Part shown: in pieces, positions 720 through 13,889 of the stretch | How positions within the stretch are numbered: the first letter of the stretch is position 1 | Layout: every line of letters begins with the position of its first letter | Assembly: GCF_000341395.1 (NCBI RefSeq) | Contig: NC_020304.1 | Span: 3,450,001-3,482,000, forward strand | Direction: 5' to 3' | Length of the DNA stretch: 32,000 nucleotides | DNA from: Desulfocapsa sulfexigens DSM 10523 | GTDB lineage: Bacteria; Desulfobacterota; Desulfobulbia; Desulfobulbales; Desulfocapsaceae | Made by a program: the position numbers and the translations under genes | Notes under the pieces: generated by a model | Database searches by the model: none | What the model saw: the letters and a program-made list of their open reading frames with translations, nothing else | What the model was told of the DNA's origin: nothing

Positions 720-1082
720 CTACTCTACGGTATCAACAAGCTTCCCGCGAAGATCCTCAAGATTTGCCTGCATACCTAGAATTTCTTCTGCAGGAACCTG
801 ACGAATCACCTCATCGGTCTTGGTGTCCACAACTTTTACGACCAGTTTATTAAACTCCTGGTTATTTTCAAAGCGAACACTATAAAGACCATCTTCGGTG
901 AGCGACTTGATCTGATTCAGGAGCTCTTCCGGCTGTACACCACCACTCTCTGGAGAACTTACCTTCTCCAGATTCACATCTCCCTTCTTCAGATCTTTAC
1001 GTCCGGAATCGACGCCATCTGCTGGCCGCGGCATCTGCTGCAGTGCGGAACCCGTTGCATTCATAGCTTCTATTGACGACAT
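720..1082 (-). CDS. flaG: FlaG family flagellar protein
   Basis: 120-aa ORF between fliC and fliD. The C-terminal half (YSVRFENNQEFNKLVVKVVDTKTDEVIRQVPAEEIL) fits the FlaG family pattern. GAGGAA SD at 1089-1094, 6 nt upstream of the ATG. Confidence 0.8.
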   Translation of the reverse strand: MSSIEAMNATGSALQQMPRPADGVDSGRKDLKKGDVNLEKVSSPESGGVQPEELLNQIKSLTEDGLYSVRFENNQEFNKLVVKVVDTKTDEVIRQVPAEEILGMQANLEDLRGKLVDTVE

Positions 1083-1252: not shown

Positions 1253-3100
1253 TTAACCTAACAGTGACAAGGCCAACTGTGGTTGCTGATTAGCCTGGGC
1301 CAAAATTGAAACGCCAGCTTGTTGCAGGATATTCATTTTGGTCATCGCCGAAGTTTCCATGGCGATATCAGCATCAAGGATCCGTGAACGTGCAGCAGAA
1401 AGATTCTCTGATACATTGTTCAAGTTGGCAATGGTGGATTCAAAACGATTCTGGATCGCACCCAAGCCACCTCGGATAATATCAACATCCTCAAGGGCTT
1501 TATCAACACTGGCGATAGCTATAACAGCATTTTCACGGGTATCAACTGACATCTGGTCAACTGTTACAGTTGCTGATGTCGCTGCACCAACATCTGCACC
1601 GCCAGCCAAGGTAATTGTGCCGGCAACACTTGCAGCAGTCGTTCCTGAAAAGTCAACCAATGCCTGAGCTGCGAGACCACTGGCAGTTGTCAGAGCCTCA
1701 ACATAACTAGCTATTTCTGCTCCAGTATCCATTGAAGCTGACGTCAATGACGCAGTGATGGTAATTGTCGTATCAGAGACCACGACAGTGCTCGCATCGG
1801 CTGTCCCGCCGGATAAGTCAAGCGAACCGGCCGTAACTGCACTCGCTGATCCTGCAAAGCCAACCAAAGCCTGGGCTGAGATAGCACTGGCGGTTGTCAG
1901 GGCGCTAAGAACAGCAGCTAACTCTGCTCCTGTGTCTGTCGCTGCAGCAGTCAGTGATGCTGTTACAGTAATCGTGGTACTTCCTGCTGTATCCGTTGCA
2001 ACCGCTATAGTAGCGTCATCTAAACCACCAGACAAATCATAGGTGTTGGCGACACTTGCAGCTGTTGATCCTGTGAAATCTATCAAAGCTTGCGCTTCAA
2101 GAGCACTGGCAGTTGTTGCATCAAAAATATCCTGCAGCCCTGCTGTTGTTGAACCGACTGTAGTGCTAAAGTCTGCGGTGATTGTGATAGTAGTACTTCC
2201 AGCAGTTGAAGTGGCAACAGTAATATCACTGCCAGAAGTCGCATCAACCAGGACAAGCGAGATATTATTACCGGCAAGCCCTGTATCATCAGCTACTACA
2301 GAGAAGGCTGTTGTAGCATTAGTTGCAGCAACACTGGTCGCAGTAGTATCAGCGACGACAACCGTAATATCATTACCAGCGGTACCAACACTCACTGCTG
2401 TCACATCTAATGACCCAGTAGTATTGGCAGCAGCAACCGAAGCAACGGAGGCTCCGCCATCAACGAGGACAATCGAGATATCATTACCAGCTGATCCAGC
2501 TGACTGTGCTGTTCCGATCAATGATCCTGCGGTATTTGTTGCTACCGAAGCTGATGTAGTTGCAGCTACTGCAGCCGCAGCTTCTCCTAAATCAGCAGCA
2601 CGGGCACTATCAATGGAAAAGGAGATAGTCTGATCAGCACCAGCGTTGGCACCAACCTGAAATGTTGCATTCGTCATAGAGCCGTCGATAACAGCTTTGC
2701 CGTTAAACTCGGTGGTCTGAGCAATACGGTCAAGTTCAAATTTAAGTTGAGTCACCTCATCGTTGAGAGAACTACGATCACTTTCGGTGTTGGTGTCATT
2801 GGCAGACTGAACGGCCAACTCACGAATACGCTGCAGGATATTAGTACTTTCCTGAAGTGCACCCTCAGCCGTTTGCGCCAGAGAGATACCATCATTAGCG
2901 TTTCTTGCTGCCTGATTCAAACCACGAATCTGAGAAGTCATACGGTCGGAAATAGCAAGACCAGCAGCGTCATCTTTAGCGCTGTTGATACGCAGACCAG
3001 ACGACAAACGCTGCATAGATTTATTTAGTGCAGATTGAGAGTTACCCAGATTACGTTGGGCGTTAAGAGATGCTACGTTGGTGTTAATTGTTAAGGCCAT
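1253..3100 (-). CDS. fliC: Flagellin (615 aa) with conserved D0/D1 termini and a long Ala/Thr/Ser-rich repetitive variable domain
   Basis: N-terminus [55 protein letters not shown]-terminus [69 protein letters not shown]. Both are canonical flagellin N/C domains. GGAGGA SD at 3106-3111. Confidence 0.97.
1583..2206 (-). repeat. Three ~65-72-aa tandem repeats in the flagellin variable domain (aa 299-506)
   Basis: Units begin [14 protein letters not shown]..., [14 protein letters not shown]..., [12 protein letters not shown].... Each contains TTAS-x-x-AQALxxFxGSxAxxV...L[SA]GG. Seen by aligning the translation by eye. Confidence 0.75.
2207..2497 (-). repeat. Three ~25-38-aa tandem units in the flagellin variable domain (aa 202-298), each starting with an AGN[DN]I[ST]-[IVL]V-hydrophobic-D motif
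   Basis: [14 protein letters not shown]... / [14 protein letters not shown]... / [14 protein letters not shown]... read directly from the translation. Confidence 0.7.
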
Positions 3101-3105
3101 GGTGA

Positions 3106-3140
3106 TCCTCCATGAATTGTTAAGTTGGGCGTCCTTGCCC
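3106..3140 (-). promoter_or_regulatory. Candidate CsrA-type sites in the fliC leader: GGA in a hairpin loop plus GGA within the SD
   Basis: The minus-strand RNA reads GGGC-AAGGAC-GCCC (3140-3127; 4-bp stem, AAGGA in the loop). About 25-30 nt downstream comes CAUGGAGGAUCACC-AUG (SD 3111-3106). This layout resembles the two-site CsrA operators described for flagellin mRNAs. No csrA or fliW gene is in the window. Confidence 0.3.
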
Positions 3141-3272
3141 GTTTGAAACTGTATTAATTACTGTTATTCTTCAAACTTGATTTCTTCGATTATCCACCTC
3201 CCCTTTTATTGGTTACTGTTTCGGTTATAACTTTTGTAAAAACACTGTTAAGGGCTCTACTCCTTATAGGAC

Positions 3273-3300
3273 GTATCGGAAGTGGTTCCAGAATACTTTA
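3273..3300 (-). promoter_or_regulatory. Sigma28 (FliA)-type promoter candidate for fliC
   Basis: The minus strand reads TAAAGTAT-N12-TCCGATAC (-35 at 3300-3293, -10 at 3280-3273), against consensus TAAAGTTT-N11-GCCGATAA. The spacer is 1 nt longer than consensus. It would give a leader of about 165 nt. Confidence 0.5.
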
Positions 3301-3885
3301 GTTTTTTTTTATTTAATTTATTTTATTTATTTTGGGGCTGTAGCCGACATGTTCATCGATCTGTTCAATCACCTACTGGCCGAGGGTATACTTCGTTAAA
3401 CAGTATCCTGTAAGTGCGTTCACAAAACATAATTCTTTTTTTTCGAGCGACCTTTTTTCTGTACTTATAGTATCACTAATATCACTGTCTAAATAATAAA
3501 ATAGCGTTTGAGGTACCTTTTGGTCGACAGTCGTATCTTTTTTTCTATAGTGCTGGTCGAAAAAGAATTACGTAACAAAATTATCTATTTCAAAAGATCG
3601 CTCAAACCTGCTATTATAGCAATAGTGTGCAAGATCAATTATTTCTTCAGTATCAGCACATCTCAAAGAAATGAAACTTGACACACCATCATGCCCTTTT
3701 CAGTCAATTGAGGTCTTTAGTACATGCTGCAATTTACCGTTGGTTGGAATATTGTTTTGCCCATAAAGCACTCAAAATTCCGATAGCGTATTTTTCTTTA
3801 GAAGTTTTTCATGTTCAGATCATACTTTCATTATATCTGAACATATATAGTGGTGCAGAAAATAGTTTACAGGATGACAAGTTAG

Positions 3886-6800
3886 ATGAAAAGAACAATA
3901 CAATCGGTAATGGATCCCGAGCTACAGCTCAACACCAAATCCGACTTAGTTTATTACATTACTTTTCCAGATAATTACAACCCAGCAGTCGAATACCCTC
4001 TAATAATTTCCATTGACGGATATGGTGGACACCCTGGGTCTGAATATCAGTCTGAAAAACTGAGACCTTACTTAAGTGAAAAATATGAATCTATTGTTGT
4101 AGGAGTGTCGTATCACGGCATCAACAGGACTGGAAGTGTAGTTGAATTTTCTCCTGAAGCGTGGGAATCTATTTTCGATTTAGAACCAGGTGAATTTACT
4201 AAGAGGTTTGTAGCAGGCAAACCAATGGACAAAATATTTGATGATATTTTTGCCTTTTTGGTTGAACGAAAAATCTCAAGACTTTCTCCCCTATTGGCAG
4301 TTAAAACTACCTTGCCTGACAAATACTCTTCATTTGGTTTTTTACCTGCCATAGAACATTTGAATGTTCTTTACGACATACTCTCAAACTATAAAATAAA
4401 ATTATCAGAAATTAACATCCTGGGGACATCCTATGGTGGATATATTGCCTTATTGATGGGCAAATTCGCTCCCCATACATTCAATTTTATAATTGACAAT
4501 TCTGGCTTTGTCGCCACACAATTTTCTGAAATTCACCCATCACTGGTAACAAGTAGTGCCAGTTATATGCGAATGGTTAATGGAAAAAGATATGAAATTC
4601 CGGCAACCACAAAATCATTATGGGAGAACAACGAATTTTCAGAAAAGTATTTTTCCGACGCCAACAGAATGATACGCAATGTTACTGTGAAAGAGCATAT
4701 GCTTGAGTCTGACACAAAATACTTTTCATACCATTCCAAAAAAGACATTATTGCCTTACTAGCTGAAAAAAAGATGTTTTGTGACAAATTGAAAGAATTC
4801 GCCTATGTCGATTTTTCAGAAATCGGCGACAAAGAAATTGATGGTTCATTGTTTAAAAATCTCAATCACGGCATGAACGCCTCTCTGCGAAAATTATATG
4901 ATGTTACATTCCAGAAGAATGCACTTGTAAACAAACAACATAAATATCAAACTGATTTTCATCTCAAGTCTAAGCATGTCTTTGACTGTTTCAGTAAAAA
5001 ATATGAGTTTACATACTGCCTTGATAAAGGTTTAGAAGTCAAAGTCACCTCACTCAAGATGAATCCATCAGTATCGAACCACAACAACTGTATCGACGAT
5101 AAAGATATTCCGCTAAATTCAACTATGCAAAATGACATGAAGAAACAGCCCACCATCGGTACAAAGACGCTTACACTGACTCACCTCCCCCCTTCATACA
5201 AAAACGATATTTTCAATCAAAACCTTGCATATTTCAAAGCAAAGCATCCGTCACTTTACAACATGGTAATCAATCATAAATGCAATGAGTACTGGCTTTG
5301 CAGTAATCCAGATGGAAGCCCAAATATATATGAGATAAAGAGCAACTCACCCTTATATAAGGTCTATAACAAAAAATCATTATTCGATAATATCAACAAG
5401 AATATTTCAGGACTTTCGGCCAATGCTACAATTGCTGAGGCATTTGTGGGTGGAGGGAATGATCGTTGGAAAATTAATAGTCCTATTCAATGTCAGATGC
5501 TTAATGATTTGTTCGCAAATGGTATATTTAAAAAATTAGGTGTCAATTATGACAACCTTGCACCATTCAACAATTATAAAACTGACTTTATGCCCCTGGT
5601 TCGAGTTTATGGAATAGGTCTGGGATACCACATAACTGAATTACTGAGAACAAGAAATGTTTGCTACATGACCATCTACGAACCACACCTTGATCTTTTT
5701 TACACCTCCCTCTTCACGGTACCGTGGAATCTCCTTTTTAAATATTTTGACACCAACGGCAAGGGGGTTAACCTTGTTATAGGTGACACTGCTGACAAAG
5801 CCGTCCTTAGTAATATTACTTTTATTAAAAACCGATTCATGCCACTTACTAGCTATTTCTACCGTTTAAATCATCTTAATTCTTTGCAATCAAAAGAACT
5901 TATCCAGAAAGAACCTCAATCAGATTCCATTGAAAGATCACAATCAGATGCAGGATGGTACGAAGATCAGAGGACAGGTTTTTATATGAGTGCGAGGAAT
6001 ATAAAGAAAAGAAATAAATTTTACACAGGACGACGAACCAAAAAGACATTTCGCGCTTTTGTTGTTGGAAGTGGCCCTTCACTCAATGATTCGATTTCCT
6101 ATATAGAAAAACATCAAAATGATGCTCTCATTTTCTCATGTGGATCTGCAATAACTCCTTTGCTCAAAGCTGGAATAATTCCTGATTATGAGATTGTTCA
6201 GGAACGAACATGGCATTTCCCCAAACACGAGGAAAAACACGATCTTGCTCTTGTAAAACAGATATCACTTCTTAAGCTCAATGTCGTAAGCCCCAAAATT
6301 GATCACTATTATAAGGAAACTCTTGTTTTTCAGAAATTCAGGGATCCAGGTTCTTCATTTTTAGGAAAGGACTATGCAGTGACTACCGCAGTAAACCCTA
6401 CAGTTACTAATGCCGGAATCGCTATCAGTGCTGCCCTCGGCGCAAAAGAGGTTTATCTTTTTGGTGTGGATTATGGCGCACCTGCAGAGGGTAAGAAAAT
6501 GCATGCTGCAAATACCCTCCATGACCATTCCCCTGTAGATGATAGCGTGGATGCAAAAGCCACATCCGACATTCCAGGAAACTTTGGCTCAACTATACGT
6601 ACTACCTCGGTGCTGTCCTGGTCCTTACAGACAACGGAAATGAAAATTGCCGAATTCCCAAAAATACGTTGGTATAACGTCGGTGAAGGTGCTCGTATTT
6701 CAGGGGCAATTCCAACAAAGGTAGAAAATCTTCCAAAAAAATACTCCGGGAAAACGTCAAAGAAGGATTTACGGAAACAGGTATCAAGTTGTTTCAACAA

Positions 6801-7197
6801 TAATTATTCATCCGATGAAATACTTAACAGGTTAAAAACAGTACAGATGAATCAAATCGAAGAATATCTACAATCTTTGCTTGGGTTCACAACTGCAACG
6901 CCGCAAACCAGAGAGGAGATTATCAACACTCTCCAACTGTTATATTCGGCGGTGAATGTGGGAAAAAATCAAACTAACTTCCTGCCATCCTCCCTCTTGC
7001 CATATGGTTTTATGCAATTTATTACCAGCGTCTTTATTCAGTGCTCGATGGAACCCACTGATGAAGGGGCAGTTCAATTTTTTGAAACATCCAAGAGAAT
7101 TTTGGCTGAATATATAAACAGCATACAAACGGATATACAAAAGATGTTAGACTATATTGAGCGCGACGAAGAGACTGAGTTAATTGAGGCATGGTAA
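3886..7197 (+). CDS. maf: Fusion protein: N-terminal alpha/beta-hydrolase-like domain (aa ~20-345) + motility accessory factor (Maf, DUF115/MAF_flag10) flagellin nonulosonic-acid glycosyltransferase (aa ~436-1103)
   Basis: One uninterrupted 1103-codon ORF. Nucleophile elbow G-T-S-Y-G-G (Ser182, nt 4429-4431), with later candidate acid/base residues in YHSKKDIIA (D287) and NLNHGMN (H328). The Maf part opens with DIFNQNLAYFKAKHPSLY and carries FRAFVVGSGPSLNDS (GSGPSL at 6067-6084) followed by LKAGIIPDYEIVQER, typical of the Maf/DUF115 core. Confidence 0.8.
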   Translation: MKRTIQSVMDPELQLNTKSDLVYYITFPDNYNPAVEYPLIISIDGYGGHPGSEYQSEKLRPYLSEKYESIVVGVSYHGINRTGSVVEFSPEAWESIFDLEPGEFTKRFVAGKPMDKIFDDIFAFLVERKISRLSPLLAVKTTLPDKYSSFGFLPAIEHLNVLYDILSNYKIKLSEINILGTSYGGYIALLMGKFAPHTFNFIIDNSGFVATQFSEIHPSLVTSSASYMRMVNGKRYEIPATTKSLWENNEFSEKYFSDANRMIRNVTVKEHMLESDTKYFSYHSKKDIIALLAEKKMFCDKLKEFAYVDFSEIGDKEIDGSLFKNLNHGMNASLRKLYDVTFQKNALVNKQHKYQTDFHLKSKHVFDCFSKKYEFTYCLDKGLEVKVTSLKMNPSVSNHNNCIDDKDIPLNSTMQNDMKKQPTIGTKTLTLTHLPPSYKNDIFNQNLAYFKAKHPSLYNMVINHKCNEYWLCSNPDGSPNIYEIKSNSPLYKVYNKKSLFDNINKNISGLSANATIAEAFVGGGNDRWKINSPIQCQMLNDLFANGIFKKLGVNYDNLAPFNNYKTDFMPLVRVYGIGLGYHITELLRTRNVCYMTIYEPHLDLFYTSLFTVPWNLLFKYFDTNGKGVNLVIGDTADKAVLSNITFIKNRFMPLTSYFYRLNHLNSLQSKELIQKEPQSDSIERSQSDAGWYEDQRTGFYMSARNIKKRNKFYTGRRTKKTFRAFVVGSGPSLNDSISYIEKHQNDALIFSCGSAITPLLKAGIIPDYEIVQERTWHFPKHEEKHDLALVKQISLLKLNVVSPKIDHYYKETLVFQKFRDPGSSFLGKDYAVTTAVNPTVTNAGIAISAALGAKEVYLFGVDYGAPAEGKKMHAANTLHDHSPVDDSVDAKATSDIPGNFGSTIRTTSVLSWSLQTTEMKIAEFPKIRWYNVGEGARISGAIPTKVENLPKKYSGKTSKKDLRKQVSSCFNNNYSSDEILNRLKTVQMNQIEEYLQSLLGFTTATPQTREEIINTLQLLYSAVNVGKNQTNFLPSSLLPYGFMQFITSVFIQCSMEPTDEGAVQFFETSKRILAEYINSIQTDIQKMLDYIERDEETELIEAW

Positions 7198-7209
7198 AAA
7201 AATAGACGT

Positions 7210-8355
7210 CTACCCGGCGACACCCAATTGGGAAAACATTTGTCCATAGATCTTTAAGGTCCGCTTTTTTGCAAGATCAATACTCTGTCTGTACTTATTT
7301 ACGGATTCTTCAGTTTCATGTAACGTTTTTGAAGCTTTACTCACGAGTTCATCTGAAAAACTGCCAGCGACAGTCACATAACGATCGTTCAGGTTAAGAG
7401 AGTCATACGCATATTGAACTCTGTCTAAGGCTGCCAATCCTACAATTGGTTTTACCATTGCCATATTGCAAACATTTGCATGATATCTCATACCGAGTAC
7501 CAGGCCACTGTTCTTATATATTGAAAAAAGTAAGTTTGCCCCTTTGTCATACTGAATACAAGGTGCGATAGTGACGTGTCGGCGAATCAAGAAATCATCC
7601 ATAGTAACCAGTAAATCAGATATTGCCCTAAGGTCGCTATAAATATGTGGAACTAAGACGACATCGAAATCTTCCTGACTAATTAGATAAGTAAGAGATT
7701 TTGAAAGCTCTTCGTAATAACGTGCAGTATCAATATTACCACGAGAATTACTTTTCATAGTCAACTGATCGCTGGTAATATTAACTGCAACGTATCTCTT
7801 ACCGTTAGTAAATATTGGATCAAGCTCAACTGGTTCGTAAAAATAGCCATTATCTAATATTTCTTCCATGTATTCCAGATAATGCTCTCCAATTTCATCC
7901 TTAAATGAATTCACCGAGCCATCGTTTCTCAAGGCAATCTTGATATTGGGCCGTGCACAAAGCTCATCAAGAAATCTTCTGAACTTAGTAATATTTCCTT
8001 CGGGTACTTCTCTATGAGGGTTACATCCAATGCTAGTTATAAGCATCGGTGTAGTGAGTTTTTTTAACACCCCGGGAAAGAAATCGATTGTCGTTCCGGT
8101 AAAGCTGTCTTTCACCCAATAATCAAGAAACCCTCCACCTCCAATTACCAGCAAATCGAAAGTGTTTGCATAATCTATAAATCCTTCATTAAATTCACAC
8201 TTATCTTTGAGGGTATAACTTTTATAAAATTTCCTGATTTCCATGCGATGGATTTCATACTTACTGAAAAACGAATCGATGATACGCTTAAACCCCATAT
8301 GACTTGCGTTATCACCTATATTGCCAAGAAAAGATGCTACATGTAAAATTCTCAT
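7210..8355 (-). CDS. Polysaccharide pyruvyl transferase family protein (CsaB/WcaK-like)
   Basis: N-terminal MRILHVASFLGNIGDNASHMG and DLLVIGGGGFLDYW, plus C-terminal LVLGMRYHANVCNMAMVKPIVGLA, resemble the conserved blocks of the PS_pyruv_trans family. Its ATG (8355-8353) overlaps the neuA stop by 1 nt (TAATG). Confidence 0.65.
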   Translation of the reverse strand: MRILHVASFLGNIGDNASHMGFKRIIDSFFSKYEIHRMEIRKFYKSYTLKDKCEFNEGFIDYANTFDLLVIGGGGFLDYWVKDSFTGTTIDFFPGVLKKLTTPMLITSIGCNPHREVPEGNITKFRRFLDELCARPNIKIALRNDGSVNSFKDEIGEHYLEYMEEILDNGYFYEPVELDPIFTNGKRYVAVNITSDQLTMKSNSRGNIDTARYYEELSKSLTYLISQEDFDVVLVPHIYSDLRAISDLLVTMDDFLIRRHVTIAPCIQYDKGANLLFSIYKNSGLVLGMRYHANVCNMAMVKPIVGLAALDRVQYAYDSLNLNDRYVTVAGSFSDELVSKASKTLHETEESVNKYRQSIDLAKKRTLKIYGQMFSQLGVAG

Positions 8356-9044
8356 TAAACCTGCCCCTTTTCTATTAAAAACTCAGCATACTGCCAGTCC
8401 TCTTGGTCATCGATATCAAGGTTAGCAACACCAGTCATGATAAAGGCGTATGCCTCTGGAATAGTATAACTTTTAACCCTTTTCAAGAGATCAATTTCTG
8501 CTAGATACAACGCACCATTGTGTTCATATGCCGCTGGCATATCCTGTCGTCTAAGCTGCTGTTGAGTATCCATTAAAGATTCTAGATACTGGCCATTCAA
8601 GCGATACATAAACATCGGATGTTTTTTTAATCTTGCAACAGAAATCATCATTCCACACTCTTCATCGAGACAAGTAGCGATGATGTTATCTATTTGCTGT
8701 GTGGTCCTGAAAGGAGAGGTTGGTTGAAGTAAGAGTAAATAGTCATATTCCTCTTCAATCTGCTCCAATGCATGCATAATGACGTCCATGCTTGATGTTT
8801 CATCTTCTGCAAGATATTTCGGCCGGGTAAACGGTACTTCACAATTTGCCATCTTGGCTATTTCAATAATTTCAAAGTCATCCGAACTGAGAATCAACCG
8901 ATCAATATATTGACTGTGTAATGCCGCCTCTATTGTCCAGCAAATCAGCGGTTTATCACCCAACAATTTGATATTTTTTTTGAGGATTCCTTTTGACCCT
9001 CCTCGAGCAGTAATTAAGGCAAGAATTTTCTTCTGTTTATACAT
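8355..9044 (-). CDS. neuA: Acylneuraminate (nonulosonate) cytidylyltransferase, CMP-sugar synthetase (NeuA/LegF-type, single-domain 229 aa)
   Basis: ILALITARGGSKGILKKNIKLLGDKPLICWTIEAA is the CMP-NeuAc synthetase N-terminal signature. There is no C-terminal esterase domain. Confidence 0.85.
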   Translation of the reverse strand: MYKQKKILALITARGGSKGILKKNIKLLGDKPLICWTIEAALHSQYIDRLILSSDDFEIIEIAKMANCEVPFTRPKYLAEDETSSMDVIMHALEQIEEEYDYLLLLQPTSPFRTTQQIDNIIATCLDEECGMMISVARLKKHPMFMYRLNGQYLESLMDTQQQLRRQDMPAAYEHNGALYLAEIDLLKRVKSYTIPEAYAFIMTGVANLDIDDQEDWQYAEFLIEKGQV

Positions 9045-9051
9045 GACGTTT

Positions 9052-10176
9052 TTACCCTACATCTCTGAAAAGTTTTTGGTTTGATACTTTCCAAACATCT
9101 TCCTTGAGGGCCTGCGTAAACTGTTTAGCGCTATCTCCCAGCCCATAGTAGTTGCATGCTGGATACGATTTTGAAATTTGTGACTGCTTAATCGCTGAGA
9201 GAATAGCTTCTCGATCAAAGGGAACATCAAAAATACTGGGATGTTTAAATCTGTTCTGTTGGCGAGTACCAATGTTTATTGTTGGAACACCATATATTGG
9301 GGCTTCGTGAATACCAGCACTGGAATTCCCGATTAAACAATCAGCATTTCTTAGAAATGTTAAATAATGCTCAAACCTCAAAGAAGGAAAGATTCTGATA
9401 TTGTTCTTTTTTTGTAAACGCTTATATGCAGCAAAGATATACTCCGATCCAGAATCATTATTAGGATAAATTACGATATAATTCCGCTTGCTTTCCAGTA
9501 GAGCATCCGCAAAAAGTGCAGCGTTATCGAACTGGATTTCCAATTCTGTCGTAACCGGGTGCAACATTGCAACCGAATATGAGTCAAAGGTCACTTCATA
9601 TCGCGCTTTGGCTTCTTCGAGGGAAGGCAGTTCATCGGATAGCATGACATCGACATCTGGTGATCCAATGCAATAAATGGCATCTGGATCTTCACCCAAT
9701 TGCTTCAAGCGTTGTTCTGCTTTGTCATTCGCGACAAAGTGAATGTGTGACAACTTCGAAATAGCATGCCTCATCAGCTCATCAACGGTTCCAGAAATTT
9801 CACCACCTTCAATATGTGCAACCAATATATTTCTCAATGCGCCTACCGTTGCACCCGCCAAAGCTTCAACCCTGTCCCCATGGACAACAATCAGGTCAAT
9901 TTTATTCTCAGCAAGATACCGACTTAATCCAATAATTGTATTTGCAAGGACAACTTCCATACTTTCCCCTTCAACCTGATTCATAAAGGTAAAAAGATTG
10001 TCAAATCCTGACCGGGGAATCTCTTTTATGGTACCACCGTATTTGGCAAGCATATGCATACCTGTACCAAATATCTGGTATTCAAACTCATTTGATTCCT
10101 TAACTGCACGAATAAGTGATTTCAATTTTCCAAAATCTGCACGAGTTGCTGTGATGAAAAGAATTCTTTTTTTCAT
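9052..10176 (-). CDS. neuC: UDP-N-acetylglucosamine 2-epimerase (hydrolysing), NeuC/LegG-type
   Basis: MKKRILFITATRADFGKLKSLIRAV...GTGMHMLAKYGGT...VHGDRVEALAGA...AHIEGGEISGTVDELMRHAISKLSHIHF matches the NeuC-type epimerase pattern. Its ATG directly follows the neuB TAA (10179-10174, TAAATG). Confidence 0.85.
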   Translation of the reverse strand: MKKRILFITATRADFGKLKSLIRAVKESNEFEYQIFGTGMHMLAKYGGTIKEIPRSGFDNLFTFMNQVEGESMEVVLANTIIGLSRYLAENKIDLIVVHGDRVEALAGATVGALRNILVAHIEGGEISGTVDELMRHAISKLSHIHFVANDKAEQRLKQLGEDPDAIYCIGSPDVDVMLSDELPSLEEAKARYEVTFDSYSVAMLHPVTTELEIQFDNAALFADALLESKRNYIVIYPNNDSGSEYIFAAYKRLQKKNNIRIFPSLRFEHYLTFLRNADCLIGNSSAGIHEAPIYGVPTINIGTRQQNRFKHPSIFDVPFDREAILSAIKQSQISKSYPACNYYGLGDSAKQFTQALKEDVWKVSNQKLFRDVG

Positions 10177-11223
10177 TTATTGAATATCGCTCCAGTCTAA
10201 GTGAACATTCATTGTAATATCCCTGGCTGCTCTTTTCCCTAGTACGTTATTGTATTCTTCAGCCGATATTTTTCCTGTACCTGGTCTTTTAACCCATATA
10301 TTTTCCTTTGAAAAAACCTCTCCCTCCTTTACAGGCAGAATAGTCACAACAGTGGCAAAGGCAAAATCCCTGGTTACCTGTTCCTCGTCTAAAAGACTTG
10401 TTTTGTCTCCCCCTCTTTCTAATTTTAAAATTTTACTTGAGGCGATGAGTTCATTCAACTCACTTGGAGTCATGGAGCAGACTATATCTGGTCCTTTCCG
10501 ATCCTTTGAGTCAGTAAAATGTCTTTCAAGAATTGACGCTCCAAGAGCAACCGCCCCTAGACAGGCCAAATTATTGGTGGTGTGATCAGAGAGTCCAATC
10601 ACGGCATCGGGAAAAGCTTCTTCCAGATCAAGCAACGCGCCTAAACGTACTAATTCTGGTGGGGTTGGATATAAATTAGTTGTATGTAACAGGGCAAAAG
10701 GGATCGTATGTTTCCGTAATATCTTAACTGCTTTTTTTACACCTACCAAATCATTCATTCCCGTACTGAGAATGATGGGCTTTCCAAATGAGCATATATA
10801 TTCCAATAGAGGATAATTGTTACATTCACCCGAGCCCATTTTAAATGCCGGAACATCAAATTTCACCAAACGGTCGACAGCTGCTCTTGAAAAAGGTGTA
10901 CTGATAAATATTGCTCCTCGAGACTCGGTATATCTTTTAAGTTCCCATTCTTCTTCTTCATTGAGAGAACATCTATCCATAATGTCATAAATAGAGTCAG
11001 GGGAATTACCAGGGATAGTTTTTTTGGCAGCATCGCTCATTTCATCTTCCACTACATGAGTCTGGTGCTTAATTATCTCTGCTCCCGCCGATAGAGCCGC
11101 ATCTACCATTTCAATGGCAGTCTGAAGTATGCCTTCATGGTTGATTCCTATCTCTGCAATAACAAGTGGATCGTGATGATAACCGATCCGTCTATTTGCT
11201 ATTTGAATTTCCGGTTTTTTCAT
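10177..11223 (-). CDS. neuB: N-acetylneuraminate (nonulosonate) synthase, NeuB/LegI-type, with C-terminal SAF domain
   Basis: PLVIAEIGINHEGILQTAIEMVDAALSAGAEIIKHQTH is the NeuB-family signature. The C-terminal VKRPGTGKISAEEYNNVLGKRAARDI segment is SAF-like. Confidence 0.9.
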   Translation of the reverse strand: MKKPEIQIANRRIGYHHDPLVIAEIGINHEGILQTAIEMVDAALSAGAEIIKHQTHVVEDEMSDAAKKTIPGNSPDSIYDIMDRCSLNEEEEWELKRYTESRGAIFISTPFSRAAVDRLVKFDVPAFKMGSGECNNYPLLEYICSFGKPIILSTGMNDLVGVKKAVKILRKHTIPFALLHTTNLYPTPPELVRLGALLDLEEAFPDAVIGLSDHTTNNLACLGAVALGASILERHFTDSKDRKGPDIVCSMTPSELNELIASSKILKLERGGDKTSLLDEEQVTRDFAFATVVTILPVKEGEVFSKENIWVKRPGTGKISAEEYNNVLGKRAARDITMNVHLDWSDIQ

Positions 11224-11262
11224 GTCACCTCGCTCAAAATAATTTTTGATTATTTATTAAAC

Positions 11263-11523
11263 TCAGCCACCTTGAGCTGGCTCTGCGGCAGGAATTGTTA
11301 TATTGGTATATATATCGACAAACGTCACATCTCCCAATAGTTGTCTAATAGTTTTATCATTGTTTGCTGACTCTTGAATACGATCATAATCATATTTAAA
11401 ATTTAAGTGCACGACACCGAAGACAACTATCTCCCATTTCTTCATATCAGTACGTACATTATTATGGTCAGCTCCCGGAGCGTGCACCTTTTCAAAGAAG
11501 AAAAACTCGGCTACGTGGGGCAA
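11263..11523 (-). pseudogene. Possible fragment of an IS5-like transposase N-terminal (DUF772-like) domain; otherwise an orphan 86-aa ORF
   Basis: APGADHNNVRTDMKKWEIVVFGVVHLNFKYDYDRIQESANNDKTIRQLLG loosely follows the G-x-P...R-x-M...LKH-x-YNLSD-E...N...F-x-G pattern of InsH-type N-terminal domains. TTG start with a stop immediately upstream. No DDE domain follows. The resemblance is weak. Confidence 0.25.
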
Positions 11524-11872
11524 GATTAGAACAGTCTATTGTTGCATTTCCAGAACTGCAAAGGCAGCATATCATACCAGTAGTAATGGAAATTTTAGTA
11601 TCAGCACGACAAGTAATTTACTTAAATTTAACTAGATCTTTTTTACTGGTGGCATATGACATCGTTGGCCGAAGATCTTCTGCTCAATGAAAAATCCTGT
11701 GAGATCAGAATACTAACCAAATATTATTAACATATATCATATTTTCGGCGTGGTATGCAAACAACAACAGGATGTTAATTTGTAAAAAAACAACAATTTA
11801 GAAAAATATTCGCTTCGTAACAAAAAAATACCAGATTACCACTATTCCTCAGCCTACCCGTCTGAGGAGGAA

Positions 11873-11971
11873 TTGTTTCGTGTTGATTATATGGGCATCT
11901 GCGGCCTGAACGGCCGCAGCAGAGCCCCCATTGATGGGTTTATGGAGTCCCATGTAATCGACACGGAACAA
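11873..11971. repeat. 99-bp imperfect palindrome: 23-bp outer arms enclosing a GC-rich 8-bp hairpin (candidate structured RNA, MITE-like or REP-like element)
   Basis: 11873-11895 pairs with 11971-11949 at 23/23 positions if the 3 T:G positions count as G-U (20 Watson-Crick + 3 G-U, all wobble only in plus-sense RNA). Inner hairpin ctgcggcc-tgaac-ggccgcag at 11899-11919. Verified base by base. Confidence 0.6.
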
Positions 11972-12393
11972 CTCAGGGTTGCAAAGCTGAGCTTCGATGG
12001 TAATCAGGAAAAAATATGTTACAGACATTTGGTAGTTATTATTATCTCGTTCAAGCCCTAATTAGCCATATCAGATTTGAGGGTTTTATAAGTTTGTTGG
12101 GATATACTTTCACCTTCCCTAGAGGTATAGAGACAATGATGGTACATCACAACTGGTTCAACAACTTGAAAAACCTCCCAGCCAGATTAACATCTTACAT
12201 TCACAGAAAGGCAAATTGAAGCCAGGAAATATTTTCTTTAAAGTGCGCATACCAAAGTATACTTTCTAATTCCCAAACAATGACAGGTGAAAATTGTTGA
12301 GTTTTGAACTGAATTAGATAATTTATTGATACAAAATTTGATAGATGATAAAGTGTGTGATTGTAAAAAAAAATCTCGTTATATCTTGTATTA

Positions 12394-12422
12394 TTAACTA
12401 AAATAATGGGAAACGATATAAT
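12394..12422 (+). promoter_or_regulatory. Sigma70-like promoter candidate upstream of the PilZ genes
   Basis: TTAACT (12394-12399) - 17 nt - TATAAT (12417-12422), about 90 nt upstream of the GTG start at 12510. AT-rich context, so the false-positive risk is high. Confidence 0.25.
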
Positions 12423-12509
12423 GTAGTGTTTTGGAAATCGTTATACTTTCTTCTGAAGATAATCAGGCTCAGAGTATTGACTCTCTATAAATTTGACTAA
12501 GGATATCAA

Positions 12510-13199
12510 GTGACAGAGCAGAATGAATTGTTATCGAAAACATACAGTGACAAACCTGTCAGGCTTTTTCTGCCGATGCTCAACAGTGACGACAGACTGT
12601 TGGTCCACTGCATCCTTCAAAAGGGAACCGGTAAGCACTTCAATTTGTTGTTTAAACAGGGGACACTTCCTGTAGACAATATAGACACAAACACCTCATG
12701 CCTCATCAGCCTGGATGATGCTGGCCAGAGTATCTCTCTGGAGAGTAACATCACCAAAATTATAAACGATCAGACCCTGGAGATGGTTCTGCAAAAAACC
12801 ATCAGCCATGAACAGATGCGCGAATACTTCAGGGTTGATTGTACAGTCCCAATTATCATAAAATCTGTTATCCCTCCTGGATTTGGAAACCCTGAGGAAC
12901 AATGGAAAATTTCCGGTACTACAGCTGATCTCAGTGGATCAGGACTTCGCGCCAGCTTTACCGAAGCACCTCCTGCCAACACTCAGGTTCGATTGGAACT
13001 GGCGTTGCCAACAACTGAACCGACCGTTATCAAAACCCTTGCCTCCCCCGTACGTATTTCCCAACTCACCGAAAAACTCTGGGATGCAGCCTATCGCTTT
13101 GATGAAATAGAAGATGAGGATCAGGATGCTATTATCGGATGTTGTCTTGTTGCCCAGAGGCGGCTGCTTCGACTGAAAGTTAAAGTAAAGGGAAATTGA
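12510..13199 (+). CDS. YcgR-like PilZ domain protein (c-di-GMP receptor / flagellar brake-type architecture), paralogue 1
   Basis: RxxxR motif in M-REYFR-VD (R104-R108) and D-L-S-G-S-G (D140-G145) form the PilZ c-di-GMP binding signature. An N-terminal domain of about 100 aa precedes it, as in YcgR. GTG start with AAGGA SD at 12499-12503. Confidence 0.8.
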   Translation: MTEQNELLSKTYSDKPVRLFLPMLNSDDRLLVHCILQKGTGKHFNLLFKQGTLPVDNIDTNTSCLISLDDAGQSISLESNITKIINDQTLEMVLQKTISHEQMREYFRVDCTVPIIIKSVIPPGFGNPEEQWKISGTTADLSGSGLRASFTEAPPANTQVRLELALPTTEPTVIKTLASPVRISQLTEKLWDAAYRFDEIEDEDQDAIIGCCLVAQRRLLRLKVKVKGN

Positions 13200-13211
13200 A
13201 AGGAATTCACG

Positions 13212-13889
13212 GTGACTGCTTCAATATCAGAGACGATCAAGAAAATAGCCGACAGCGAAACGGCTAAAATTGATATACCAACCAAAAATAATCAGACAAT
13301 CCGTCTCGATTGTATCTATAAGGAGTCCATTTCTCCGAATTTTTTCCTGGTCTTCCCTCCCAAAAAACTTCCCGAAGCTATTGACCTGGAAAAACATTGT
13401 CCCGTATCTATCAAACACGGTCAAACATCCTTGACGGTGACAGCTAAAATAACGGCGATAAACGGTGACAGAACCCTTGAGCTCACAGCCAAAAACAGTG
13501 TACGACCTGAAAGTTTGAGAGAATATTTCAGAGTTGGTGCCAATGTTTCCATAACTGCCCGGTACGATCCGGAATCGATGGAAAGTAAAATCCCATCATG
13601 GAACATGGATGGGCATACCCTTGATATGTCCGGCAGTGGTGTTCTGGCGATATTCCCTGAAGATCCCAAAAGCAGGCACAAGATATCACTGCAGATCCAC
13701 CTTGCAGGCAACCGGAATCCGGTACACTGCATTGGACATGTTGTCAGGAGCAGGAGACTTCGAAGGGACAGTTATCAGGTAGCATTCCATTTTGATTCCA
13801 TTAATGCCAAAGACAAAGACTCAATCATCTCCTACTGTCTTCGCGAACAACGTAACCAGTTGCGAAAAAAAGTCCAAACCGCCGGATAA
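13212..13889 (+). CDS. YcgR-like PilZ domain protein, paralogue 2
   Basis: L-REYFR-VG (R103-R107) and D-M-S-G-S-G (D138-G143). Same two-domain layout as paralogue 1. GTG start preceded by AAGGAA at 13200-13205. Confidence 0.8.
   Translation: MTASISETIKKIADSETAKIDIPTKNNQTIRLDCIYKESISPNFFLVFPPKKLPEAIDLEKHCPVSIKHGQTSLTVTAKITAINGDRTLELTAKNSVRPESLREYFRVGANVSITARYDPESMESKIPSWNMDGHTLDMSGSGVLAIFPEDPKSRHKISLQIHLAGNRNPVHCIGHVVRSRRLRRDSYQVAFHFDSINAKDKDSIISYCLREQRNQLRKKVQTAG

Follow-up and report, generated by a model that had tools for sequence, protein, structure and literature searches.

Why should an enzyme that glycosylates flagellin be made as one chain with a hydrolase? The question is posed by UWK_03116, a gene of Desulfocapsa sulfexigens DSM 10523 found at positions 3886 to 7197 (forward strand) of the 32,000-nucleotide stretch analysed here (NC_020304.1, positions 3,450,001 to 3,482,000), which is referred to below as the window. 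A preliminary description, made from the sequence alone, had proposed that the gene joins an alpha/beta-hydrolase module to a Maf flagellin glycosyltransferase. It is concluded here that this fusion architecture is real, conserved and recurrent, yet rare and uncharacterised; that the N-terminal module is a full DUF2920 alpha/beta-hydrolase with conserved Ser, Asp and His residues, predicted to be catalytically competent; and that residues 436–1103 are a complete three-domain Maf.

Domain organisation of UWK_03116

The gene is a single uninterrupted open reading frame, as had been proposed, with an ATG start, 1103 codons and a stop, and no stop codon inside. Its product matches WP_015405329.1 / AGF79645.1 (UWK_03116) at every residue, and the source chromosome is closed (3,986,761 bp). 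The databases label the protein just as 'hypothetical', 'DUF2920 family protein' or 'DUF115 domain-containing protein'. Pfam finds three strong matches in it, none of them overlapping. The motifs quoted in the preliminary description are all in place, namely GTSYGG at residues 180–185 (nucleotide 4423), containing Ser182 and followed by Asp287 and His328, and in the Maf part DIFNQNLAYFKAKHPSLY at residue 441, GSGPSL at residue 728 (nucleotide 6067) and IIPDY at residue 764 (nucleotide 6175). The features of the gene are as follows.

3886–7197, forward strand: whole fusion gene, 1103 amino acids plus stop (UWK_03116 / WP_015405329.1)
3886–5052, forward strand: DUF2920 (PF11144) alpha/beta-hydrolase domain, residues 1–389 (Pfam, AlphaFold2 model, Foldseek)
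4429–4431, forward strand: codon of Ser182, candidate nucleophile in GTSYGG (model position and conservation)
4744–4746, forward strand: codon of Asp287, candidate triad acid (model position and conservation)
4867–4869, forward strand: codon of His328, candidate triad base (model position and conservation)
5053–5190, forward strand: variable inter-domain linker, predicted to be disordered, residues 390–435 (low model confidence, low identity, in-frame indels)
5212–5865, forward strand: Maf N-terminal domain PF20157, residues 443–660 (Pfam E 2e-27)
6001–6480, forward strand: Maf central MptE-like / Maf_flag10 glycosyltransferase domain PF01973, residues 706–865 (Pfam E 4e-26; homology to 5mu5)
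6760–7194, forward strand: Maf C-terminal alpha-helical bundle, residues ~959–1103 (model secondary structure; full-length alignment with Maf-only orthologues)

Scans for promoters and terminators over window positions 3000–7400 gave counts no higher than those for shuffled sequence, with no internal terminator and no convincing internal promoter. No Shine-Dalgarno-like sequence stands ahead of the Met codons 392, 414 and 418 in the linker, and an Rfam scan of the whole window gave no matches.

The N-terminal module matches PF11144 from residue 5 to residue 377 (E 1e-40; 140.6 bits against a cut-off of 24.7). The match covers profile positions 5–391 of 400, and the likeness to the DUF2920 or '617' family noted in the preliminary description is therefore borne out over nearly the full profile. 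The structure of the domain was predicted with AlphaFold2 from an alignment of 47 DUF2920 sequences, which gave a confident model (predicted local distance difference test, pLDDT, 92.2; predicted template modelling score, pTM, 0.91). The model has the alpha/beta-hydrolase fold with the expected Ser-Asp-His order, and the three residues occupy canonical positions: Ser182 lies between the strand 171–181 and the helix 183–194, at the nucleophile elbow, Asp287 follows the strand 278–284, and His328 is in a loop after the strand 307–313. The DUF2920 fold has been described as an alpha/beta-hydrolase core with an extra sub-domain made by insertions after strand 4 and strand 6 (PMC11878206). Both are found in the model where the family expects them, as an insertion at about residues 76–150 (helices and one strand) and a beta-hairpin at residues 225–243. 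Foldseek matches the model to alpha/beta-hydrolases with a probability of 1.00, including the catalytic domains of S9 peptidases, acetyl, feruloyl and carbohydrate esterases, and thermostable esterases. Judged from the model, the fold is as compatible with a peptidase-like hydrolase as with an esterase or an acyltransferase.

The candidate catalytic residues are strongly conserved. Ser182, Asp287 and His328 are kept in all 45 fused proteins examined, as are G180 and G184. Among 85 standalone DUF2920 proteins, Ser182 is kept in 81, Asp287 in 83, His328 in 81, and the two glycines in 83–84. The 47-sequence alignment repeats this pattern for both Ser-Asp-His and the GxSxG motif. R264, K324 and R335 are conserved as well, and might bind the carboxylate of a sugar if they line the pocket. 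When the DUF2920 profile was run against PDB sequences (E <= 0.1), it retrieved similarity at the nucleophile elbow only, and no solved member of the family.

The hydrolase module had been placed at residues ~20–345, followed by a low-complexity linker at ~345–435. Both elements exist, and it is their boundaries that need correction. Residues 345–389 are modelled as a helix and a beta-meander with pLDDT 95–98, and the hydrolase domain therefore occupies residues 1–389, about 45 residues beyond the earlier limit. Because the folded domain extends to residue 389, the variable linker runs from about residue 390 to 435. In a model of the full-length protein the linker range has pLDDT 29–52, and is below 50 throughout residues 393–426. 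The pTM of that model is 0.50, which, with the predicted disorder of the linker, fits two modules on a flexible tether.

That a complete Maf follows the linker, as first described, is supported. Maf_flag10_N (PF20157) matches with 96.5 bits against a cut-off of 23.5, and the MptE-like / Maf_flag10 domain (PF01973) with 92.2 bits against a cut-off of 34.6. The Maf part is homologous to residues 127–526 of the Magnetospirillum Maf chain 5mu5_A (E 3e-33), 5MU5 being the sole solved Maf structure. In the full-length model, C-terminal helices occupy residues 959–1102, and this region aligns over its full length with Maf-only orthologues. The three-domain architecture agrees with that described for Maf (PMC11339370). 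The protein failed the equivalog test for PseD, the pseudaminic-acid-specific Maf (NCBIfam NF050051), with 60 bits against a cut-off of 670.

Conservation and distribution of the fusion

Intact fusions of 1095–1133 residues are present in nine independent assemblies (from ENA, JGI, Logan and NCBI) at 58–81% identity; the relatives are P0001–P0005, P0211, P0212 and a Desulfocapsaceae metagenome-assembled genome (L007). Identity among them is 59–81% in the N-terminal domain, 57–85% in the Maf, and 22–44% in the linker, which has in-frame indels. Purifying constraint is equal on both domains. The preliminary description had raised the doubt that the joining of the two parts was made by the assembly; the exact match to a closed genome and the recurrence in independent assemblies remove it, and the covalent joining belongs to a real, conserved gene.

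Three relatives have disrupted copies. In the first (L006), a single codon in 491 differs from intact P0211. The difference is a TGA in the linker (L006:8690-8692), at a position where the relatives have Cys (TGT, Cys402, in the window). Either a sequencing error or a polymorphic nonsense codon that splits the gene could account for it; a more remote explanation is a Cys/TGA pair in a lineage that uses selenocysteine. In the second (L004, protein P0010), there is a frameshift at a run of T on a contig with 4x coverage. In the third (L003, protein P0006), the Maf part is 80% identical and the hydrolase domain is gone, with an in-frame relic of its last ~20 residues retained at L003:1-330 (HVFDCFSNKYEFTYSMDRGL). 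The upstream DNA of this copy is unrelated to the promoter region of the window, with no alignment, and holds the hairpin-like CCGGGTCAAGCCCGG. The loss could reflect a deletion (for example by a mobile element), a rearrangement or a chimeric contig, which look alike at this level. Split-gene relatives were considered as signs of a two-gene ancestor, and this appearance is mostly illusory: P0011 (from L006) is the one-codon TGA variant of an intact fusion, and P0010 is the frameshifted copy on the 4x contig.

The wider distribution was examined by an exhaustive HMMER search of 1.84 billion representative proteins, which gave 3006 matches; the statements in the next two sentences refer to the best 150 of these 3006. 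The Desulfocapsaceae-type fusions form one cluster at 50% identity. A second protein, P0191, has 1071 residues and the same three Pfam domains at only ~28% identity. A search with P0191 yielded ~25 further clusters of 1028–1085 residues with the same architecture, Campylobacterota-like and here called clade B, together with ~14 clusters of proteins of ~600 residues (P0243–P0256, one from Sulfurimonas) in which DUF2920 is joined to the C-terminal half of Maf_flag10_N, with no glycosyltransferase domain. The architecture had first been taken as singular. It is not unique, being present in at least two unrelated clades and at least 30 protein clusters, and Maf is fused to other sugar enzymes too.

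Neighbour-joining (distance) trees were made for each domain, without support values. In the Maf tree, the common ancestor of the two fusion clades is the root of all 153 sequences, of which 122 are Maf-only. In the DUF2920 tree, dozens of standalone lineages lie between the two clades. Maf-only proteins are nested within both fusion clades. These topologies suggest that fusion took place independently at least twice and that loss or splitting then happened repeatedly, a conclusion that is provisional because distance trees of this kind carry no support values.

Some other proteins found in the searches are worth recording. P0171 (1067 residues) has a UDP-GlcNAc 2-epimerase (Epimerase_2) domain N-terminal to Maf. 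P0195 (WP_217874736.1, Pseudoalteromonas, 957 residues) is a Maf with a C-terminal sulfotransferase, which hints at sulfated flagellin glycans. P0260 is a tandem DUF2920-DUF2920 protein of 844 residues with 247 member sequences (PF11144 787 bits, two matched stretches). Many DUF2920 proteins of Bacillota (Paenibacillus, Brevibacillus, Gottfriedia) have a C-terminal extension of ~130–150 residues; examples are L009, L018, L019, L021, L022, L027, L046, P0027 and P0029, and PF26154 was already annotated in two.

A 2024 classification of alpha/beta-hydrolases calls DUF2920 Campylobacter-specific (PMC11878206). That label is outdated, because homologues are found in other phyla, with 28–45% identity in Clostridium, Paenibacillus, Brevibacillus, Nitrospirota, Rhodospirillales, Methylophilaceae, Thiomargarita, Oceanospirillum and Thermodesulfobacteriota.

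The glycosylation island and its counterparts

The fusion gene lies among genes for flagellin and for the synthesis of a nonulosonic acid.

720–1082, reverse strand: FlaG, upstream of the fusion gene
1253–3100, reverse strand: flagellin, 615 amino acids, divergent from the fusion gene; likely acceptor substrate
7210–8355, reverse strand: PS_pyruv_trans-like protein, 381 amino acids; adjoins Maf in clade-A loci with or without DUF2920
8355–9044, reverse strand: nonulosonic-acid cytidylyltransferase (CTP_transf_3, NeuA/LegF-like), 229 amino acids, no esterase domain
9052–10176, reverse strand: NeuC-type hydrolysing UDP-GlcNAc 2-epimerase (Pfam; TIGR03568 406 bits against a cut-off of 236)
10177–11223, reverse strand: NeuB-type nonulosonic acid synthase (Pfam; TIGR03569 377 bits, cut-off 400, against 216 bits for PseI)

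On the basis of the NeuC-type and NeuB-type scores, the sugar of the island is predicted to be of the sialic or legionaminic type, not pseudaminic acid.

The flagellin has three tandem repeats of ~71 residues, 52–60% identical, at residues 299–512 (window 1565–2206, reverse strand). Their alignment scores are 142–177, against 46 +/- 7 for shuffled sequence, and the central domain that carries them has 29% Ser/Thr and 23% Ala, suggestive of a repeated module that accepts glycans. Tandem Repeats Finder detected none in the flagellin DNA, and the repeats are visible at the protein level only. A candidate sigma-28 motif upstream of the flagellin gene was rejected, as it did not have the canonical spacing.

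The island (~3000–13000) has a GC content of 35–40%, against 43–50% in its flanks, which would fit an island that moves horizontally or evolves fast. The PS_pyruv_trans-like gene is found beside Maf in the window and in L001, L003, L004 and L007. It has no match to any NCBIfam model, and its product may put one more substituent on the flagellin glycan. The NeuB-type gene is separated from the first PilZ gene by a gap of 1.3 kb (11224–12509) with no open reading frame above 86 residues and no Rfam match; the syntenic locus L004 has just ~370 nucleotides in its place. Two paralogous PilZ-domain genes (12510–13889, forward strand) flank the island, and are in the same place in L004.

The same synteny is found without DUF2920 in a Maf-only relative (L001/L002), with the addition of genes for a CE4 polysaccharide deacetylase and a formyltransferase. 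In L001 these two genes end the sugar operon (L001:11229-12961), while DUF2920-containing loci are without them, and they may provide an alternative route to re-decorate the sugar. Remnants of them were sought in the 11.2–12.5 kb gap of the window, and none were found.

In a set of 42 GTDB species genomes that carry this DUF2920 subfamily, the fusion is intact in one, and in 12 a separate Maf gene lies no more than 6 kb away. When nonulosonic-acid genes are counted along with Maf, at least 18–19 of the genomes have DUF2920 at most 6 kb from one. Standalone DUF2920 genes stand beside Maf or nonulosonic-acid genes in several phyla. In a Sulfurimonas sp. (L050:9001-10806), a 601-residue DUF2920 protein is encoded in a legionaminic-acid-type operon, near FliD and FliS, by a gene that is translationally coupled and lies between the NeuB-type and Epimerase_2 genes. 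In L016, DUF2920 is likewise within a nonulosonic-acid operon. In a clade B locus (L049), the fusion is accompanied by nonulosonic-acid genes, two flagellins and a second Maf of the plain kind. In Campylobacter, DUF2920 genes are neighbours of acyl carrier protein, HAD-type hydrolase, PseF and PseG genes (PMC11878206), and also of FkbH-type genes.

Proposed function and its alternatives

On balance, we think that UWK_03116 is probably a bifunctional cytoplasmic flagellin-glycosylation enzyme, in which Maf transfer is combined with acyl-ester chemistry by the tethered hydrolase on the same sugar. In this proposal, the Maf (residues 436–1103) would transfer a CMP-activated nonulosonic acid to Ser/Thr residues of the adjacent flagellin, in the cytoplasm and before export. 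The sugar would be of the sialic or legionaminic type, made by the adjacent NeuC/NeuB/NeuA-like genes. The DUF2920 domain (residues 1–389), on a flexible tether of ~45 residues, would act on the same sugar through an acyl-Ser182 intermediate, and would either install an O-acyl group, as OatC and CsaC do, or remove one, as the esterase domain of bifunctional NeuA does. The tether would give 1:1 stoichiometry and a high local concentration, so that each transfer event would be coupled to the modification step. The coupled transfer and editing of the flagellin glycan that the preliminary description foresaw is a reasonable inference. We lean slightly towards acyl transfer over removal, because the minimal island encodes no other acyltransferase to make the substrate of an esterase, and because the DUF2920 genes of Campylobacter adjoin acyl carrier protein and FkbH-type genes. 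The ~600-residue proteins of DUF2920 and part of Maf_N suggest that the hydrolase docks through a Maf-type module, and so slightly favour action at or near the transfer step over a purely biosynthetic one. The same idea applied to the whole family, that DUF2920 proteins add or remove acyl (ester-linked) decorations on flagellin nonulosonic acids and are physically partnered with their cognate Maf as a 'transfer-and-edit' machine, is put forward more tentatively, at somewhat less than even chances.

The characterised Mafs (5MU5 of Magnetospirillum magneticum, Maf1 of Aeromonas caviae, CbMaf of Clostridium botulinum, and PseD, PseE and Maf4 of C. jejuni) share with UWK_03116 all three domains, namely the N-terminal Rossmann-like domain, the central Maf_flag10/MptE-like domain and the C-terminal helical bundle. 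Like them, UWK_03116 adjoins genes for flagellin and for CMP-nonulosonic acid synthesis. They differ in that the characterised Mafs have ~600–820 residues, with no extension or a C-terminal TPR, whereas UWK_03116 adds an N-terminal serine-hydrolase domain of 390 residues and a tether. The Campylobacter '617 family' (Cj0617, Cj1305c, Cj1306c, Cj1310c) shares with the N-terminal domain the full PF11144 profile, the fold, the Ser-Asp-His residues and a place in a flagellar glycosylation island. In Campylobacter, however, these are separate genes for proteins of ~400 residues, often phase-variable, while in D. sulfexigens, a sulfur disproportionator of the Desulfobulbales, the domain is covalently joined to Maf.

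A parallel in organisation is offered by the NeuA proteins of E. coli K1 and of group B Streptococcus, in which a CMP-sialic acid synthetase is fused to a sialate O-acetylesterase (PMC8319020). The two share a logic, with a step in the handling of a sialic-acid-type sugar tied covalently to a serine esterase, putative in UWK_03116, that adjusts O-acylation. In NeuA, however, the esterase is on the activating enzyme, and in UWK_03116 the hydrolase is on the transferase. The NeuA-like protein of the window has no esterase domain, unlike bifunctional NeuA. The esterase domain of NeuA is not known to be an alpha/beta-hydrolase of the DUF2920 type. A parallel in chemistry is given by OatC (meningococcal serogroup C polysialic acid) and CsaC (serogroup A capsule), which are glycan O-acetyltransferases with an alpha/beta-hydrolase fold and a Ser-His-Asp triad (PMC3046976, PMC7501274). 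They resemble the N-terminal domain in fold and triad, and act on bacterial surface glycans, OatC on sialic acid. Both work as separate enzymes on capsule polymers, with a proven dependence on acetyl-CoA, while for the N-terminal domain such chemistry is suggested by analogy.

Several observations weigh against the proposal. By E-value, the best Foldseek matches are the catalytic domains of S9 peptidases. The DUF2920 profile, run against the PDB as above, shows no specific sequence relationship to CsaC, which it does not retrieve, or to any other solved acyltransferase. Some standalone DUF2920 genes are in contexts unrelated to glycosylation (L005, L029, L033). Close Maf relatives are without the hydrolase domain (P0007–P0009, L001), and the domain is therefore accessory, and not essential for transfer. 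The literature searched gives no function or activity for any DUF2920 protein, and the sole note on a phenotype is that a Cj1305c mutant was motile, with unchanged glycan charge (PMC11980577). This last result is weak evidence either way, because the gain or loss of a neutral O-acyl group leaves the charge unchanged.

The alternative that survives best, although we consider it unlikely, is that the hydrolase acts upstream of transfer, on the free or CMP-activated sugar or on an acyl donor, so that the fusion provides co-expression and stoichiometry only, with no coupling to glycosylated flagellin. It would account for the many standalone DUF2920 genes, and for those in nonulosonic-acid operons without an adjacent Maf, where the start and stop codons overlap (L050, L016). 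The pTM of 0.50 gives no sign of a fixed interface between the domains, and NeuA of group B Streptococcus can de-O-acetylate monomeric sialic acid before or after CMP activation (PMC8319020). Against this, the two independent fusions have picked the transferase and not a biosynthetic enzyme, and the ~600-residue proteins pair DUF2920 with part of the Maf N-terminal domain alone, which suggests a module directed to Maf or flagellin.

It is improbable that the N-terminal domain is instead a non-catalytic adaptor, a co-opted hydrolase scaffold that recruits flagellin or a partner in the manner of GlfM or TPR. Accessory modules that bind flagellin do occur in modular Maf/FlmG systems, where Maf-1 has a C-terminal TPR, Maf-2 works with a separate GlfM, and FlmG has an N-terminal TPR (bioRxiv 10.1101/2023.12.03.569772). 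Their switching between fused and separate forms resembles that of DUF2920, which is fused, split or absent among close relatives. The close Maf-only relatives fit this reading, and the inactive S9-like proteins DPP6 and DPP10 are among the structural matches. However, the Ser, Asp and His residues and the GxSxG elbow are kept in all 45 fused proteins, across clades of ~28% identity. Pseudo-enzymes normally lose their catalytic residues. The adaptors of the Maf/FlmG systems are non-enzymatic, consisting of TPR or of the small four-helix bundle GlfM, a fold unrelated to the 390-residue enzyme fold with an intact triad seen here, and there is no Pfam match to TPR anywhere in UWK_03116.

More doubtful still is a role as an S9-like serine peptidase in the processing of flagellin or of some other flagellar-pathway protein. 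Foldseek ranks the catalytic domains of FAP, DPP4 and prolyl tripeptidyl peptidase first, one homologue carries the JGI name 'predicted peptidase', and Pfam gives a partial match to Peptidase_S9 (PF00326, 27.6 bits, profile positions 56–192 of 213). That match spans the core from nucleophile to His only, and DUF2920 scores far higher over the same stretch. The protein has neither a beta-propeller nor any other domain of the kind that gates substrates in S9 enzymes; in the model the DUF2920 fold accounts for all of residues 1–389. The DUF2920 family is associated with sugar-biosynthesis operons. We also know of no processing step in Maf-type flagellin glycosylation.

Finally, that the fusion is an artefact or a functionless accident, made by mis-assembly or by the recent loss of a stop codon between neighbours, is effectively refuted: the disrupted versions (the TGA in the linker of L006, the frameshift in L004, the missing N-terminal domain in L003) are set against a gene in a closed isolate genome, nine intact assemblies down to 58% identity with the frame held across a variable, indel-rich linker, a difference between L006 and intact P0211 of one codon, the 4x coverage of the L004 contig, and a second, independent fusion clade.

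A literature search found no paper on a DUF2920-Maf fusion, on PF11144 in this context or on UWK_03116, in agreement with the preliminary description, which knew of none. The advance is incremental and not revolutionary. An accessory enzyme has been joined to a Maf, and since the two families, and the fact that they are neighbours, were known before, no new category is created. The system does offer an experimental handle, with one polypeptide, one flagellin and a three-gene pathway of the sialic-acid type, which could be rebuilt in E. coli that makes CMP-Neu5Ac, as was done for CbMaf (PMC11339370). The range of DUF2920 is widened to Bacillota, Nitrospirota, Thermodesulfobacteriota and several Pseudomonadota, which corrects the published classification (PMC11878206).

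The DUF2920 or '617' family has been without a function in the 25 years since Campylobacter jejuni was first sequenced. A single chain of DUF2920 and Maf that appears to have evolved at least twice is strong genomic evidence that both families share a substrate and a step. In C. jejuni strains with different glycans and different binding of a phage protein, the content of DUF2920 and maf genes makes up the main differences in the glycosylation locus (PMC7099621). If the proposal is true, the two fusions would serve as Rosetta stones, each separate Campylobacter DUF2920 would pair with a particular Maf, and this pairing would explain much of the strain-to-strain diversity of flagellar glycans.

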